From: an uncultured Eubacteriales bacterium
GTDB lineage: Bacteria; Bacillota; Clostridia; TANB77; CAG-508
Length of the DNA: 64,000 bases
Direction of reading: 5' to 3'
NCBI GenBank assembly: GCA_949288095.1
Contig: CASEIX010000023.1
Location: forward strand, 9,977 to 73,976
Made by a program: the position numbers and the translations under genes. Within the stretch, counting starts at the first letter, position 1; every line of letters begins with the position of its first letter. This document shows, in pieces, positions 4,192-64,000 of this stretch. The notes under the pieces were generated by a model. That model had not been told where the DNA came from, made no database searches, and saw only the letters and a program-made list of their open reading frames with translations.

Positions 4192-4413
4192 ACCGACATA
4201 CACAAGTGGGAAGGATTCATAAATTATTTATTACTCGGTTCAATACGATATTTAAGAATTTGTAATATAATTTATTGAGCTTCTTTCACTCAGACCCTCA
4301 CTGTGTGAGTACCGTGAACATTCCTCAATAAATTATATAACAAATTCTAAAACATCTCCAATCACATTCGTAATTAAATAATTTATGAATCCTTCCCACT
4401 TGTGTATGTCGGT
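4192..4413. repeat. Long imperfect palindrome (hairpin element 1): 43/44-nt outer arms, an internal loop, 28-nt inner arms and a 44-nt centre
   Basis: Outer arms 4192..4234 and 4370..4413 are reverse complements apart from one 1-nt indel. Inner arms 4252..4279 and 4324..4351 have two mismatches. The centre contains the mini-hairpin CTCAC-TGT-GTGAG. Confidence 0.9.
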
Positions 4414-4498
4414 CTAAGCAATAGCAAAGAATATATGATATTTGCATAATAGATAATTTTAATGTGAAATATCAATAAAAATTTTGTGGAGGAGAAAC

Positions 4499-6199
4499 AT
4501 GTTTAAACACAAAGAAGAAAAAGAGAAAAAAGAAGAGATGAAAGATAAAAAGGGGATACTTCAATCTAAATGGATTTTTGGAATTATAGCGATTGTATTG
4601 ATTGCCATATTTTGTATTGCAATGACACCAGTTACATTACAAAATGATACATTCTATACGATAAAAATAGGAGAACAAATAACCAAAACAGGAATTGATA
4701 TGCAAGATCATTTTTCTTGGCATGAAGATTTGGCTTATACCTATCCACATTGGTTATATGATTTAATAACATATTATATATATGCAGGATTTGGTATGAC
4801 AGGAATTTATGTAACAACTTGTATATTAACGGTTATACTAGGTATTTCCATATATATTGTTAATACAAAAATCGCTAAAAATCAATTGGTTTCATTTATA
4901 TTAACAGCAATTGTTATCTATATTATAAGAGGATATATTGCAGCAAGAGCACAATTATTAACTTTTATTTTATTTGTATGGATTATCTATTGCATAGAAA
5001 TGTTTTTGAAAAATAAAAAAATCCGATATGCTGTTGGATTAGTATTGATTTCAACTTTAATTGCTAATTTACATGCAGCTGTTTGGCCATTTATATTTGT
5101 ATTATTCTTACCATATATAGCTGAATATTTACTTGCATTAATAGCAGAAGTTACCATATACAGAAAAATAAATATAAAAATCTTAAATTTTAGAATTAAG
5201 TTATTAACAAAATCAGGAAAACATGTTGATAAAAAATTGGCATTAGAAGAAAAATTAAAAGATATTATTACAAAAAATGAGAAAATAAAAGTAAAAAGAG
5301 AAGAAGAACTAAAAAATCCATATAAAATTAGATTTACTAAAAATCCAAATGTAAAATGGTTAATATTGGTTATGATTATATGTGCGTTTACAGGATTATT
5401 AACACCATTAGGAGACACACCATATACGTATTTAGTTAAAACGATGGAAGGAAACACAACACAAAATATTAATGAACATTTACCAATGACCATTATTGAT
5501 GAAACAGAAGCTTTATCAGCAATTGTAGTCATTTTAGCAATCTTAACTTTTACAAAAACTAAAATTAAACTTAGTGACTTATTTATGATAGGTGGTTTAT
5601 GCTTTTTGATGTTGGCGTCAAGAAGACAAATTACCATGTTTTGCTTAATAGGTGTATTAGTGGTTAACAAAATGATATGTGGATTATTTGAGATATATAC
5701 AAAAAACGGATTAGAAAGATTGACACAAATGATTGCAGGTAAAGTAGGATATATCATCATGATTGTTGTTATGTTAGCCTTAAGTTATCATTTTTATGAA
5801 CCAAAACAAAATGATGAATATATAGATGAATCTTCTTATCCAGTTCAAGCATGTGATTATATATTAGAAAATATAGATTTGGGAAAAGCTAGATTTTATA
5901 ATGAATATAATTATGGTAGCTATATGATATATAGAGGAATTCCAGTATTTATTGACTCTAGAGCAGATTTATATGCACCAGAATTTAGTGGCAAAAAAGA
6001 GGATATTTTCATGGATTTTATCAATACATCTAGTATAGGAGAATTTTATGAAGATACTTTCGAAAAATATGATATTACACATGTGATTACTTATAAAAAT
6101 TCAAAAATGAATATGATTATAAAAGAAACAAAGGATCCAAACTATAAAGAGTTATACGAAGATGATTACTTTACAATATACGAGAGATTAAATGCATAA
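4499..6199 (+). CDS. Polytopic membrane protein, possibly a GT-C-type glycosyltransferase
   Basis: ATG at 4499 after GGAGGAG. About a dozen hydrophobic segments with a soluble C-terminal domain. The function call is by architecture only. Confidence 0.5.
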   Translation: MFKHKEEKEKKEEMKDKKGILQSKWIFGIIAIVLIAIFCIAMTPVTLQNDTFYTIKIGEQITKTGIDMQDHFSWHEDLAYTYPHWLYDLITYYIYAGFGMTGIYVTTCILTVILGISIYIVNTKIAKNQLVSFILTAIVIYIIRGYIAARAQLLTFILFVWIIYCIEMFLKNKKIRYAVGLVLISTLIANLHAAVWPFIFVLFLPYIAEYLLALIAEVTIYRKINIKILNFRIKLLTKSGKHVDKKLALEEKLKDIITKNEKIKVKREEELKNPYKIRFTKNPNVKWLILVMIICAFTGLLTPLGDTPYTYLVKTMEGNTTQNINEHLPMTIIDETEALSAIVVILAILTFTKTKIKLSDLFMIGGLCFLMLASRRQITMFCLIGVLVVNKMICGLFEIYTKNGLERLTQMIAGKVGYIIMIVVMLALSYHFYEPKQNDEYIDESSYPVQACDYILENIDLGKARFYNEYNYGSYMIYRGIPVFIDSRADLYAPEFSGKKEDIFMDFINTSSIGEFYEDTFEKYDITHVITYKNSKMNMIIKETKDPNYKELYEDDYFTIYERLNA

Positions 6200-8723: not shown

Positions 8724-9215
8724 TTGGACACAAAATTTAAAAGTATTATAGAGTATTTATTTAAAGATGAAGAGAGAATCTGTGTTTTTATTAATTCTTT
8801 TTCAAATTGTCATGAAAAAATAGAAAAAGAAAAATTAGTATATATGGATTTCTATAAAAGTCAGAAAGGTATAAGAATCATATATAAGCATTTGGATAGA
8901 CAAATTTTTTATATGATTATGTATCAACAAGAGATTTTGGTTGATTTACCATATGTTGTTTTACAAGAATGTATCAAAATCATTCAAAATTGTAAGCAAA
9001 AAAATATCAAAAATATAAGTATCATTCCTATTGTGATATATGTTAAAGACAATATGTATCATTATGGAAAAACAATGAAACAATGCTTTCAGATGACAAC
9101 TTATGATCATCATATACTAGAATTAAAGTACAATATAATCAATTTAACAAAATTTTTAAGATATCCTAATATGAAAAATACCATATTAGAGGATTTAATA
9201 TATATAGAAAATTAA
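8724..9215 (+). CDS. Hypothetical protein; weak resemblance to short Rpn/PDDEXK_2-type putative transposase/nuclease proteins
   Basis: TTG-start ORF. The N-terminal FKSIIEYLFKDEE..FINSF and the block IIPIVIYV recall Rpn-family proteins, but no clear catalytic motif is seen. Confidence 0.4.
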   Translation: MDTKFKSIIEYLFKDEERICVFINSFSNCHEKIEKEKLVYMDFYKSQKGIRIIYKHLDRQIFYMIMYQQEILVDLPYVVLQECIKIIQNCKQKNIKNISIIPIVIYVKDNMYHYGKTMKQCFQMTTYDHHILELKYNIINLTKFLRYPNMKNTILEDLIYIEN

Positions 9216-9491: not shown

Positions 9492-10259
9492 ATGAAAACC
9501 ATATTAGAAATAAAAAATATTTGTAAAACCTATCAAAGTAAAGAAGGGGAAATTTTAGCACTAGATAATATTCATTTTAGAGTAAAAGAAGGAGAATTTG
9601 TATCTATTATAGGTCCTAGTGGATGTGGAAAATCTACTTTACTATCTATTATTAGTGGGTTAGAAAAAAAGACAAAAGGAGAAATCTACATAGATAATAA
9701 AAAAGTAGAAGGAATTTCAGAAGATGTGGGATATATGCTACAAAAAGATTGCCTATTAGAATGGAGAAACATATGGAGTAATAGTATATTGGGACTAGAA
9801 CTAAAAGGAAAACTAAATGAAAAAAGTAAAAATTATGTAGAAAATTTATTAAAAAAATATAATCTTTATGACTTTAAAGATAAATATCCATCAGAATTAT
9901 CTGGAGGAATGAGACAAAGAGCAGCTTTAATTAGAACTTTAGCAACAAAACCTAAAATTCTATTACTAGATGAGGCATTTTCAGCATTAGATTATCAAAC
10001 AAGAATCATGGTCACAAATGATATTTATTCGATATTAAGAAAAGAAAATATGACGGCTATTATTGTCACACATGATATTTCAGAGGCTATTAGTATGTCT
10101 GATAGAGTGGTGGTATTAACAAAAAGACCAGGAAGAGTAAAAGACATTTATACAATTGATTTTGAGATGGAAAATAGAAATCCTATCAATGTAAGAGAAA
10201 GTCCAAAATTTAGTGGATATTTTAATACTTTATGGAAGGAGCTGGGGGTTGATGAATAA
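9492..10259 (+). CDS. ABC transporter ATP-binding protein (NitT/TauT family)
   Basis: Walker A GPSGCGKST, signature LSGGMRQR, Walker B LLLDEAFS. Confidence 0.9.
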   Translation: MKTILEIKNICKTYQSKEGEILALDNIHFRVKEGEFVSIIGPSGCGKSTLLSIISGLEKKTKGEIYIDNKKVEGISEDVGYMLQKDCLLEWRNIWSNSILGLELKGKLNEKSKNYVENLLKKYNLYDFKDKYPSELSGGMRQRAALIRTLATKPKILLLDEAFSALDYQTRIMVTNDIYSILRKENMTAIIVTHDISEAISMSDRVVVLTKRPGRVKDIYTIDFEMENRNPINVRESPKFSGYFNTLWKELGVDE

Positions 10260-11058
10260 TTCTTTATCACAAGAAAGAAAACAATATATCAAACATAATC
10301 GAAAAAGAAAAATACTGGTATTTATAACACAGGTAGCAATATTAATCGGATTTTTAGCTATATGGGAAATATTAGCGAATATGAATGTAATTGATAGTTT
10401 TATTATGAGTCAGCCAAGTAGAATATGGGAAACGCTAACCAATTTAGGCTCAAATGATTTGTTAATGCATATTAAAGTAACTGTATATGAAACTGTTGTT
10501 GGATTTTTGATAGGAACAATTTTAGGAACCATCATTGCTATTATGTTATGGTGGTCTAGATTTCTTTCAGATGTACTAGAACCCTATTTAGTTGTGTTAA
10601 ATAGTTTACCAAAGGTTGCTTTAGGACCTGTTATCATTATTTGGGTAGGAGCAGGAACATCAGCTATTATTGTTATGGCAGTTGCGATTTCATTGGTTGT
10701 TACTATATTAGAAAATCTAAATGGATTTATCAAGACAGATAAAGATCTGATTAAAATGGCAAAAACATTTAAAGCTACTAAATTTCAAATATTGACTAAG
10801 ATTGTTATACCAGCCAATATTTCTACTTTTATCAATTCTTTAAAAGTAAATATCGGACTTTCTTTAGTAGGTGTTATTTCTGGAGAGTTCTTAATATCTA
10901 AAGCAGGTTTAGGATATTTGATTGTATATGGAGGGCAAGTATTTAAATTGGATTTGGTTATGGCAAGTGTGATTATACTTGGTGTTGTGGCAGGACTTAT
11001 GTATTTAGCTGTATTATTATTAGAAAAAATCATATTGAAATCTAAAAAATTTCAGTAA
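10252..11058 (+). CDS. ABC transporter permease (NitT/TauT family)
   Basis: ATG at 10252 overlaps the ATPase stop codon. Six hydrophobic segments in a BPD-transporter-like layout. Confidence 0.85.
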   Translation: MNNSLSQERKQYIKHNRKRKILVFITQVAILIGFLAIWEILANMNVIDSFIMSQPSRIWETLTNLGSNDLLMHIKVTVYETVVGFLIGTILGTIIAIMLWWSRFLSDVLEPYLVVLNSLPKVALGPVIIIWVGAGTSAIIVMAVAISLVVTILENLNGFIKTDKDLIKMAKTFKATKFQILTKIVIPANISTFINSLKVNIGLSLVGVISGEFLISKAGLGYLIVYGGQVFKLDLVMASVIILGVVAGLMYLAVLLLEKIILKSKKFQ

Positions 11059-11171
11059 TAAGTAAGGAATTACTATTATAAATAGTAGTTCTTTTTTTTA
11101 GAAGGGTTATATATTTCACATATTTTGACAGACAACATAAAATATAGGGAGAAAATTAAGGAGGTGTGAAA

Positions 11172-12191
11172 ATGAGTAAAAAAGGAAAAATTGCGCTAGT
11201 GGTAATCATTGTACTCATAGCAATTGTTATTGCTGTTGTCGCTATAAAATCCCAAAAGGGAAATTATCAAAATACTTTACAAATCATTAATGTTAGTGAG
11301 GTAACACGTTCTGTTTTTTATGCACCACAATATGTAGCAATCAATAATGGATATTTTGAAGAAAAAGGATTAGAAATTGAATTATCTACTGGTCAAGGAG
11401 CAGATGCGGTTATGACAAGTGTATTGGCAAATCAAGTAGAAATTGGATTTGCAGGTCCAGAAGCATCTATTTATGTATATAATGAGGGAAAAGAAGATTA
11501 TACAGAAGTATTTGCACAATTAACGAAAAAAGATGGATCATTATTAGTGTCTAGAACAAATGAAGAAAATTTTAGTTGGGAAAATTTAAAAGGTAAAACA
11601 GTTATTCCAGGAAGAAAAGGTGGCGTACCATATATGACATTAGAATATGTCTTAAAAAAGAATGGAATTAATCCAGAAACAGATGTGGTATTAGATGACA
11701 GCATCAAATTTGACCTAATGGCAGGTGCCTTTGCAGCTGGAAACGCTGACTATGTAACTTTATTTGAACCAACAGCTTCTTTAACAGAACAAGAAGGAAA
11801 AGGATATGTTGTGGCATCAGTTGGAGAAGAGGCAGGAGAAATACCATATACAGCATATTTTGCGAAAAAAAGTTATATTGAAGCAAATGAAGAATTGATT
11901 CAAAATTTTACAGATGCGATTTATAAAGGGCAAGTTTGGGTAAAGGAACATACAGCAGAAGAAATTGCAACTGTTATACAGGACTTTTTCCCAGATACAA
12001 GTATTGAAATGTTAACAGAAGCAATACAAACATATAAAGATATAGATGCATGGAATGAAACACCGGTATTAGAAGAAGAAAGTTTTAATAGACTTCAAGA
12101 AGTCATGACATTGGCTGGAGAGTTAGAAAATCCAGCACCATATGACAAGGTTGTAAATAATATGTATGCATTTAAAAGTATTGAAAATTAA
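11172..12191 (+). CDS. ABC transporter substrate-binding protein (NMT1/THI5-like, SsuA-type)
   Basis: ATG 7 nt after TAAGGAGG. N-terminal membrane anchor; the periplasmic-binding-like body begins VFYAPQYVAINNGYFEEKGL. Confidence 0.8.
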   Translation: MSKKGKIALVVIIVLIAIVIAVVAIKSQKGNYQNTLQIINVSEVTRSVFYAPQYVAINNGYFEEKGLEIELSTGQGADAVMTSVLANQVEIGFAGPEASIYVYNEGKEDYTEVFAQLTKKDGSLLVSRTNEENFSWENLKGKTVIPGRKGGVPYMTLEYVLKKNGINPETDVVLDDSIKFDLMAGAFAAGNADYVTLFEPTASLTEQEGKGYVVASVGEEAGEIPYTAYFAKKSYIEANEELIQNFTDAIYKGQVWVKEHTAEEIATVIQDFFPDTSIEMLTEAIQTYKDIDAWNETPVLEEESFNRLQEVMTLAGELENPAPYDKVVNNMYAFKSIEN

Positions 12192-35699: not shown

Positions 35700-35856
35700 T
35701 ATGCAAATAAAACCTATATGTATTGACCTTTGTTACAATATTACTATTGCTCTTTTCATCAATACTCATGACCATAAGTGAAAGCCATCAGAGCATCCGC
35801 CGAATCTTTCGATAACTCTGAACCTCGTCAACACTATTTCATAGTGTCCAGGCGCT
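35700..35856 (-). ncRNA. glmS ribozyme: glmS ribozyme (GlcN6P-dependent self-cleaving leader)
   Basis: The minus strand reads A/GCGCCUGGAC...GACGAGGUUCAGAGUUAUCGAAAGAUUCGGCGGAUGCUCUGA. This matches the conserved core GACGAGG..GUUAUCGAA..UUCGGCGGAUGC, with a compensatory CAGAG/CUCUG helix. It lies directly upstream of glmS. Confidence 0.85.
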
Positions 35857-36035
35857 ATATATGAATGAAATATTGCCCTCCTTTCTAGATATTTTCTTGC
35901 ATACTTTTAATTTACTGCTATTATATTATACTAAAATGAAAAAATACGCAAGTCCTACTTAAAAAATTTTATTTTCTTGAAAAAAGATAACATAAAATTT
36001 GAAAAAGTCGGCAAAAAGTGTTATACTATAAATTG

Positions 36036-63449: not shown

Positions 63450-63478
63450 TTGACAACTAAATGAAAATAGTTTATACT
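63450..63478 (+). promoter_or_regulatory. Promoter of the tRNA gene pair
   Basis: TTGACA-N17-TATACT, about 20 nt upstream of the first tRNA. Confidence 0.6.
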
Positions 63479-63498: not shown

Positions 63499-63575
63499 GC
63501 TCCCTTAGCTCAGTTGGTCAGAGCAACCGGCTCATAACCGGTGGGTCCAAGGTTCGAATCCTTGAGGGAGCACCA
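63499..63575 (+). tRNA. tRNA with a CAU anticodon (elongator Met or lysidine-dependent Ile2; the loop CUCAUAA and the body look Ile2-like), CCA encoded
   Basis: Cloverleaf: acceptor GCTCCCT/AGGGAGC, D arm GCTC..GAGC, anticodon stem ACCGG/CCGGT with loop CTCATAA, T arm CAAGG-TTCGAAT-CCTTG, and a 3' ACCA. It is not initiator-like: positions 1 and 72 are paired, and the anticodon stem has no three consecutive GC pairs. Confidence 0.85.
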
Positions 63576-63585
63576 TTATACATAT

Positions 63586-63896
63586 GGGTAGGTGGCCGAG
63601 TGGCTAAAGGCGGCAGACTGTGGTCTTTGGTTAATCAAAACCTAAACTTGCAGCTCATATAAGTGATTATATGATGAACACCGGGCTAATTCGGGGAACT
63701 CTTAACAGTTAGGCTGATGACAATCCCGAGCTAGGAAAGAAATTTCCGAGTGTAGAGACTTTATACCTGGTATCTTGAAAAAGATAAAGAGAAAGTCCAG
63801 ACTACAAACATAATATAATTATGGTAGTGAAAACTATAGTAGTAAGAAATCTGTTCTCATTTGAGTACGAAGGTTCGAATCCTTCCCTGCCCACCA
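63586..63896 (+). tRNA. tRNA-Tyr(GUA), class II, interrupted in the anticodon loop by a group I intron (exons 63586..63621 and 63847..63896)
   Basis: The joined exons read GGGTAGGTGGCCGAGTGGCTAAAGGCGGCAGACTGT|AAATCTGTTCTCATTTGAGTACGAAGGTTCGAATCCTTCCCTGCCCACCA. Acceptor GGGTAGG/CCTGCCC, anticodon stem GCAGA/TCTGT, loop CTGTAAA, long variable arm CTCA-TT-TGAG, T arm GAAGG/CCTTC, and an encoded CCA. Confidence 0.85.
63622..63846 (+). ncRNA. Group I intron (IC3-like, ORF-less, 225 nt)
   Basis: The 5' exon ends in U and the intron ends in G. Helices: P3 ACCGGG (63680..85) / CCTGGT (63766..71); P4 TCGGG (63691..95) / CCCGA (63725..29); P6 GGAAA-GAAA-TTTCC (63734..47); P7 GACTT (63757..61) / AAGTC (63793..97); P8 ATCTT-GAAA-AAGAT (63772..85). 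Conserved strings GTGTAGAGACT and TAAAGAGAAAGTCCA closely resemble the Azoarcus and Anabaena tRNA introns. There is an extra hairpin with a GTGA loop at 63655..63674. Confidence 0.8.
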
Positions 63897-64000
63897 AGAC
63901 GAGTTTTTGTCGAACTCTCTGTAATGCTTGATATAACTTGATTTCAAGATTATAAGAATTTGACAACACAAAAACTTTAAACCGTTTCAAAAAAGAAGCG

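Follow-up and report, generated by a model that had tools for sequence, protein, structure and literature searches.

Group I introns leave their host RNA by guanosine-dependent self-splicing in two transesterifications, and the small tRNA introns of Azoarcus and Anabaena do so in vitro. The protein-spliced tRNA introns of archaea and eukaryotes are short, usually lie at position 37/38 and form a bulge-helix-bulge motif. In bacteria, group I introns have been described in tRNA-Leu(UAA), tRNA-fMet, tRNA-Ile(CAU) as well as tRNA-Arg(CCU) genes of cyanobacteria and proteobacteria. Bacterial and plastid tRNA introns are sporadic among relatives, and tRNAscan-type tools miss the genes that carry them (PMC4033280, PMC8450103, PMC2686568). 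Here we analyse a 64,000-nucleotide stretch of DNA (the window; GC content 27%) from an uncultured Eubacteriales bacterium. At 63586-63896 of its forward (+) strand lies what is very probably a functional tRNA-Tyr(GUA) gene, co-transcribed with tRNA-Met and split between anticodon nucleotides U35 and A36 by a small, IC3-like group I intron.

Like the Azoarcus tRNA-Ile intron, the window intron is a small, ORF-free group I intron that lies directly 3' to a U of the anticodon loop, has helices P2-P9 without P5abc, carries GNRA loops on P2 and P9, and relies on the anticodon stem to hold the exons together. The two differ in host tRNA (Ile against Tyr), in site (after the anticodon against after nucleotide 35) and in carrier (a beta-proteobacterium against gut Clostridia). 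The window intron also has an extra P1a stem-loop and a branched P9, and its P5 contains the motif CUUAAC/GCUGAUG in place of the classic 11-nt receptor. The string GUGUAGAGACU, which spans J6/7 and P7, is presumably the same in the Azoarcus intron, and near-identical versions of the core strings probably occur in the Azoarcus tRNA-Ile and Anabaena tRNA-Leu introns; a search of paper texts for the core strings matched only unrelated primers. As in the tRNA-Leu(UAA) introns of Anabaena and of cyanobacteria and plastids, and in the tRNA-fMet, tRNA-Arg(CCU) and Burkholderia tRNA-Leu introns, the insertion follows an anticodon-loop U and the exons rebuild a normal tRNA. Sporadic distribution and missed tRNA calls are likewise common to the window intron and those of the cyanobacterial type; however, the tRNA-Leu intron follows U34, whereas the tRNA-Tyr intron follows U35.

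A tRNA-Tyr host and a Firmicute or Clostridia carrier are absent from four reviews (PMC4033280, PMC8450103, PMC2686568, PMC3984707), and full-text searches of the literature yielded no tRNA-Tyr or Clostridia case, an absence that is no proof of being unpublished. The locus therefore represents a known kind of element that is new in its host tRNA, its site and its host phylum: tRNA-Tyr(GUA), 35/36 and Clostridia/Bacillota fall outside the series Leu-UAA, fMet, Ile-CAU and Arg-CCU of cyanobacteria and proteobacteria. The original prediction had called a tRNA-Tyr host in an AT-rich Firmicute, with this insertion position, unusual; the intron is not restricted to a single Firmicute, as 51 uncultured Clostridia species bins carry it and three phage tRNA-Tyr genes have a related one at the same site. 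Its site at 35/36 rather than the usual 37/38, its 225 nt and its group I core set the intron apart from archaeal and eukaryotic protein-spliced introns. The nuclear tRNA-Tyr intron of Trypanosoma brucei (PMC4931112) is similar in interrupting the gene beside the anticodon and in requiring splicing. Introns of that type, however, are short, lie at 37/38, are removed by a protein endonuclease and a ligase, contain no ribozyme and show no homology to the window intron.

Promoter- and terminator-like signals flank the tRNA-Met/tRNA-Tyr pair, and all features of the locus lie on the + strand. Upstream, TTGACA and TATACT, 17 nt apart (63450..63478), match the promoter consensus at 11 of 12 positions. 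Downstream, the start of a terminator-like hairpin with a T run (63981..64000) is cut by the window end; its equivalent is at 9359-9380 of L001, a metagenome scaffold of the same locus on which both signals were found, their coordinates being moved to the window by sequence identity. The first gene of the tandem, tRNA-Met(CAT), occupies 63499..63575 (73.3 bits with the Rfam tRNA model; also called by ARAGORN), and exon 1 of tRNA-Tyr begins ten bases after it. This exon (63586..63621) comprises the acceptor 5' strand, the D arm, the anticodon stem 5' strand and C32 U33 G34 U35, and ends in ...CAGACUGU at 63621. The intron (63622..63846; 225 nt, 36% GC) ends in ...UAAG at 63846. Exon 2 (63847..63896) starts with AAAUCUG at 63847 and supplies A36, A37 and A38, the anticodon stem 3' strand, a long variable arm, the T arm, the acceptor 3' strand and ACCA.

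With intron search switched on, ARAGORN reports tRNA-Tyr(gta) at 63586-63896 and places a 225-nt intron after gene nucleotide 36, that is, after anticodon U35; neither default ARAGORN nor the Rfam tRNA model called the gene at this locus. The predicted exon junction is GGCAGACUGU/AAAUCUGUUCUC, the slash marking the point of ligation, and the predicted ligated-exon sequence across it is GGCAGACTGTAAATCTGTTCTCATTTGAG. Once joined, the exons form an 86-nt canonical class II tRNA-Tyr(GUA) with anticodon loop CUGUAAA and an encoded CCA (ARAGORN), the anticodon stem spanning the intron. Both the split tRNA-Tyr gene and the break between anticodon positions 35 and 36, as first proposed from the sequence, are thus borne out. 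No endonuclease ORF is present in the 225 nt, which are too few for a homing endonuclease, so the intron is not a mobile one of the homing-endonuclease type; its homologues all measure 180-233 nt. Elsewhere in the window, the minus strand carries a glmS ribozyme/riboswitch at 35710-35867 (-) that scores 94 bits where the gathering score is 37; such an element is ordinary in Firmicutes.

Because the Rfam match falls below the curated 50-bit score, the intron structure was written by hand on the sequence; helices P1 through P9 can all be assigned, and an alignment of 47 homologous genes was used to follow their pairs. In P1 (63618..63653) the exon bases CUGU (63618-63621) pair with an internal guide GCAG (63650-63653), leaving U63621·G63650 at the splice site; this wobble and the three adjoining pairs are invariant in 43 distinct sequences and in phage tRNA-Tyr introns. 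A G·U extension of P1 and then a P1a stem-loop (63626-63646) follow, one P1a pair showing changes on both sides in seven sequences, and U63648-U63649 could later form a 2-bp P10 with A63847-A63848. P2 (63655..63674) has 8 bp and a GNRA loop, GUGA (63663-63666), with both-side changes in five of its eight pairs. P3 joins ACCGGG (63680..63685) to CCUGGU (63766..63771), with two pairs changed on both sides and 98.8% of cells paired. The segment 63691..63729 contains P4 (63691-63696 with 63724-63729; one compensated pair), J4/5 AA, P5 and J5/4 CAA; the P5 internal motif is conserved, and at the outer pair of P5, 22 sequences have U-A and 21 have C-G. P6 and P6a with its GAAA loop (63730..63751) include three pairs changed on both sides.

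In P7, a 5' strand of G, a bulged A and GACUU (63755..63761) pairs with AAGUCC (63793-63798). The pair G63755-C63798, the bulged A63756 and the pair G63757-C63797 are invariant in all 47 sequences, and we take G63757-C63797, beside the bulge, to be the guanosine-binding site. P8 (63772..63785) consists of 5 bp and a GAAA loop that is variable in relatives. J8/7 (AAAGAGA) and the P7 3' strand, together 63786..63798, are invariant and make up a string common to more than 190 phage-contig introns. P9 is a three-way element (63801..63843) whose stem (63801-63805 with 63839-63843) bears P9a (63809-63823; length variable, four pairs changed on both sides) and P9b (63824-63837; invariant GAAA loop, two such pairs). 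The intron ends with an invariant G at the 3' splice site, 63846.

The core helices P3-P4-P5-P6 and P7-P8 come in canonical order, and the order of their strands creates the P3/P7 pseudoknot that is characteristic of such introns. The core that had been predicted (P3, P4, P6, P7 and P8) can be written out in full, with covariation among homologues in P3, P4, P6a and P8 and an invariant P7. The splice-site U, held in its U·G wobble with the internal guide in P1, and the terminal G, both also predicted, are invariant in the 47 homologues; the terminal G and the G-C pair beside the bulged base of P7 together provide, at the sequence level, the elements of the predicted binding site. Two details of the original prediction needed correction. 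The hairpins with GNRA loops number four rather than three (L2 GUGA; L6a, L8 and L9b GAAA), and the P7 pairing GACUU/AAGUC, which had been read as a compensatory change, is instead the usual state of the family, found in 81 of 83 distinct phage examples. Of the compact IC3-type architecture, P2, the L2 GNRA loop and the invariant L9b GAAA are present, and P5 has a conserved internal motif; by analogy with Azoarcus-type introns, L9b GAAA with the P5 motif and the L2 GNRA loop with P8 probably form two clamps. The whole precursor folds better than 100 of 100 shuffled sequences (z -4.05).

The Rfam group I model, RF00028, aligns with 63618-63813 over its full length (35.4 bits, E 2.2e-7 in 601 nt searched). 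A match to this family had been put forward as a check, and the outcome is divided: the local search gives an E value of 2.2e-7, but 35.4 bits stay below the gathering score of 50, so that the window intron misses the cut-off and is not listed at gathering. Five homologues had no RF00028 match at E <= 0.001 in a 55-kb search. The phage homologue L111, whose identity with the window intron is about 70% over 173 nt, scores 56.4 bits, above gathering, and so links the window intron to the curated family.

From the sequence we infer the chemistry and the occurrence of splicing in vivo; the proposed steps follow the group I mechanism as reviewed in PMC3984707. In the precursor, the anticodon stem would hold the exons together while CUGU of exon 1 and the guide GCAG form P1, its U·G wobble lying at the splice site. 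Domains P3-P8 and P4-P6 would fold around P7, and free guanosine or GTP, bound at the P7 G-C pair beside the bulged A, would attack the phosphate after U35. The terminal G would then occupy the guanosine site, with the short P10 (AA with UU) and the anticodon stem aligning exon 2. Attack by the U35 3' OH after the terminal G would ligate the exons into a tRNA identical to the product of the relatives' uninterrupted gene.

A real group I intron that is an AT-rich, minimal RNA might also be spliced in vivo yet depend for its folding on a host protein: a chaperone, or else tyrosyl-tRNA synthetase or a similar tRNA-binding protein sitting on the exons. We regard this as unlikely, although it is the alternative that fares best. 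Comparable small tRNA introns of Azoarcus and Anabaena self-splice in vitro. No candidate protein is linked to the locus, and the peripheral elements that would be expected to stabilize the fold (the invariant L9b GAAA, the conserved P5 motif and the L2 GNRA loop) have been kept. What speaks for such help is the 36% GC of the intron, its short helices of 3-8 bp and precedent, group I introns being well known to fold with the help of proteins such as CYT-18, a mitochondrial TyrRS (PMC4275181; reviewed in PMC3984707).

Selection on the proposed structure is evident in the alignment of 47 genes, for which partners slid by one to three columns served as controls. The proposed pairs are paired in 98.2% of cells, against 36-45% in the slid controls, and 21 pairs show changes on both sides, against 2-5. 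These compensated pairs are located in P1a, P2, P3, P4, P5, P6a, P8, P9a, P9b and the acceptor stem. In the last, pair 3-70 is G-C in 37 sequences and A-U in six; its two bases flank the intron on opposite sides, and their compensation across it shows that the tRNA halves are selected as one tRNA. There is no variation in J3/4, J4/5, J6/7, J8/7, any part of P7, the U·G pair or the terminal G. P7 accordingly lacks covariation support because it is invariant, and invariant junctions together with an invariant P7 fit what would be expected of a catalytic core. Between species the intron is about 90% identical, whereas the 100 nt 3' of the gene reach 61%, no more than shuffled sequence (60%). The intron is under strong purifying selection.

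Homologues were sought in one genome per species, exon 2 being required to follow a G that does not itself follow a T. An earlier exon-based pattern had also matched phage tRNA-Ser(UGA) genes, hence the exclusion of T before G. The scan returned 68 loci, among them 46 full-length homologues, all in uncultured bins labelled Clostridia, Bacillota, Clostridium sp. or Eubacteriales and originating from the gut of human, chicken, goat, deer and rabbit. Their introns measure 215-233 nt and occupy the same position, and tRNA-Met lies upstream in most; the closest carrier bin is CALXFG01 (L176). Six further loci are cut by contig ends with the 3' end of the intron visible, for a total of 52 loci in 51 species-level bins. 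Set aside as off-target were tRNA-Ser(CGA) genes of Micrarchaeota that hold archaeal introns, a coding region in Leptospira, a partial tRNA of Haloferula, and Kiritimatiellae and Omnitrophota loci with GIY-YIG genes.

A metagenome scan by exon 2 alone, blind to the preceding sequence, found 119 loci, 66 with an uninterrupted tRNA-Tyr and at least 45 with an intron. Recurrence in 52 loci of 51 bins and in at least 45 metagenome contigs shows that the intron is not an assembly artefact. The exact 86-nt mature sequence predicted from the window is present 61 times split by the intron and 19 times uninterrupted, so what ligation is predicted to yield exists elsewhere as a real tRNA gene. Intron-free loci have an equally low GC content (median 28%), and many have the Met-Tyr tandem; three of them (L197, L202 and L289) share the upstream genes of the window, which identifies the locus as orthologous. 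The survey of relatives that had been suggested thus found the intron in 51 species-level bins and absent from relatives with identical exons. In a rough neighbour-joining tree of the adjacent 283-aa protein, the intron-free L202 and L289 fall between intron-containing groups; this weak tree suggests at least two events of gain or loss. The scaffold L001 has two further peculiarities, a 6-nt tandem duplication (ACACCG, 9040-9060) at the J2/3-P3 border of the intron and, at 9894-11541, a serine recombinase (Resolvase domain, E 2.8e-36) that starts about 0.6 kb downstream of tRNA-Tyr and suggests an integrated element just past the window end.

These comparisons bear on whether the window gene could be a dead split copy whose work is done by an intact tRNA-Tyr elsewhere, with an intron that no longer needs splicing. 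In one bin, CALXCM01, two contigs (L150 and L189) have tRNA-Tyr exon 2, so more than one tRNA-Tyr copy per genome is possible. Each of these contigs, however, ends inside an intron-containing tRNA-Tyr, so that both copies end in the intron; their introns and flanks differ, and the bin is either a genome with two copies or a mixed bin. No locus with both forms was found, and none of the 88 intron-containing loci has a plain tRNA-Tyr in its DNA (0/88, locus DNA only). Moreover, the exons hardly vary and show covariation across the intron, the intron itself has an invariant core and is about 90% conserved beside randomized flanks, and the locus is orthologous to the Met-Tyr locus at which relatives carry the uninterrupted gene. 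A dead copy is therefore very improbable. That the insert is some other element (a group II intron, an IS or an archaeal-type protein-spliced intron) or an assembly chimera is scarcely credible, since nothing beyond the sub-threshold Rfam score speaks for it, while no Rfam family beats RF00028 on the intron's strand, an ORF is lacking, independent assemblies agree on a length of 214-233 nt, and the boundaries fall exactly after U and after G around group I core strings. Pseudogene, group II or IS insertion and assembly artefact were thus rejected on conservation, the RF00028 match and recurrence in independent assemblies.

The probably functional, intron-split tRNA-Tyr gene of the window has relatives in phages. 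Phage group I introns known in 2014 all lay in protein-coding genes (Hausner et al. 2014), and literature searches found no publication on phage tRNA introns, the three phage tRNA-Tyr cases included. IMG/VR viral contigs contain more than 190 stretches in which both core strings, GTGTAGAGACT and AGAGARAGTCC, are found (L006-L125, L314-L386). The first set, 120 stretches, was defined by a gap of 30-60 nt between the strings, the spacing in the window intron itself being 27 nt; about half of this set lies inside tRNA genes of phage arrays (ARAGORN), mainly Arg(TCT) and Leu(TAA), and also Thr, Asn, Lys and an opal-suppressor-like tRNA(UCA). Examples are L017 3866-4144, L048 and L111 2944-3145. 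A targeted scan found three distinct phage tRNA-Tyr(GUA) genes (L323, L329/L354 and L387/L389), in arrays of 5-18 tRNA genes, that are split as CUGU/...G/AAAUCUG by introns of 180-189 nt. They share with the window intron the insertion site, the guide UUGCAG and the core strings, and L387 also has the P5 motif; they differ in being shorter, in lacking P1a and in having a single-hairpin P9, and the exons around them have other acceptor, D and T arms.

The L354 intron is 76.8% identical to that of the window over 168 nt. The window structure fits L323 in 67 of 74 pairs and L354 in 68 of 74, with 22 and 17 both-side changes, respectively, relative to the window; almost all misfits are in P9, which in the phage versions is a single hairpin. 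A scan of phage contigs for the exact 3' end of the window intron joined to exon 2 gave no match. In GenBank phage genomes the similarity is confined to the core, in an intron of a crAss-like phage helicase gene and in a pelagiphage capsid-gene match. In the former, the crAss-like Bacteroides phage Kolpuevirus (L313; OQ198718.1 74971-78041), the record splits the replicative helicase into two annotated pieces with a GIY endonuclease ORF between them. From this ORF to the second helicase piece there is an unannotated gap that is 80.8% identical over 70 nt to P8-P9 of the window intron and, judged from this match, is a group I intron not annotated in the record. The tRNA-Tyr intron itself has no endonuclease gene. 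Its patchy distribution and the close phage tRNA-Tyr relatives at the same site suggest that it has long been inherited vertically and has occasionally been lost or transferred.

Other elements occur at the same site. A recurring element (L231, L265, L292, L296 and L310) contains the 3' part of the clade's tRNA-Tyr without the 5' half, starting at the anticodon loop (..TATGTAA/ACTGTAAATCTG..CCA), and resembles an element's attachment site for integration into the anticodon loop of tRNA-Tyr. At L152 and L190 (Kiritimatiellae) and L184 and L172 (Omnitrophota), a small GIY-YIG ORF (Pfam E 2.7e-10) beside a complete tRNA-Tyr is followed by a tRNA-Tyr copy that runs from the anticodon stem to CCA, the units sometimes being tandem (for example, L190 at about 4400-4700). 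In these copies short covarying GC hairpins, one or two in number, fall precisely between CTGT and AAATCTG, which is the 35/36 site of the intron. Since an element with the 3' part only and GIY-YIG cassettes with 35/36 inserts both converge on it, the anticodon-loop DNA appears to be a target of mobile elements. A more speculative reading, which we consider improbable, is that the intron, more than a parasite that is tolerated, is kept for a benefit to its host, gene protection or guanosine-linked maturation, and moves between phage tRNA arrays and bacterial chromosomes by way of the anticodon-arm exons that they share. In the first version, the intron may protect the gene by splitting the anticodon-loop DNA of tRNA-Tyr that other mobile elements target; in the second, it may make tRNA-Tyr maturation dependent on the supply of guanosine nucleotides.

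Taken as a functional tRNA-Tyr gene split by a group I intron, the locus extends the small set of group I introns known from bacterial tRNA genes by a fifth host tRNA, a new insertion site (anticodon 35/36) and a further bacterial phylum. Because standard tRNA finders and the Rfam gathering threshold miss the gene, carrier genomes seem to be without tRNA-Tyr, which affects the tRNA counts used for bin quality and any inference on codon usage or recoding. Such introns are common in uncultured Clostridia of the vertebrate gut and in phage tRNA arrays. Given some 90 natural variants, intron-free alleles whose exons are identical and relatives in phages, the 225-nt intron is well suited to studies of how introns are gained, lost and passed between phage and host.
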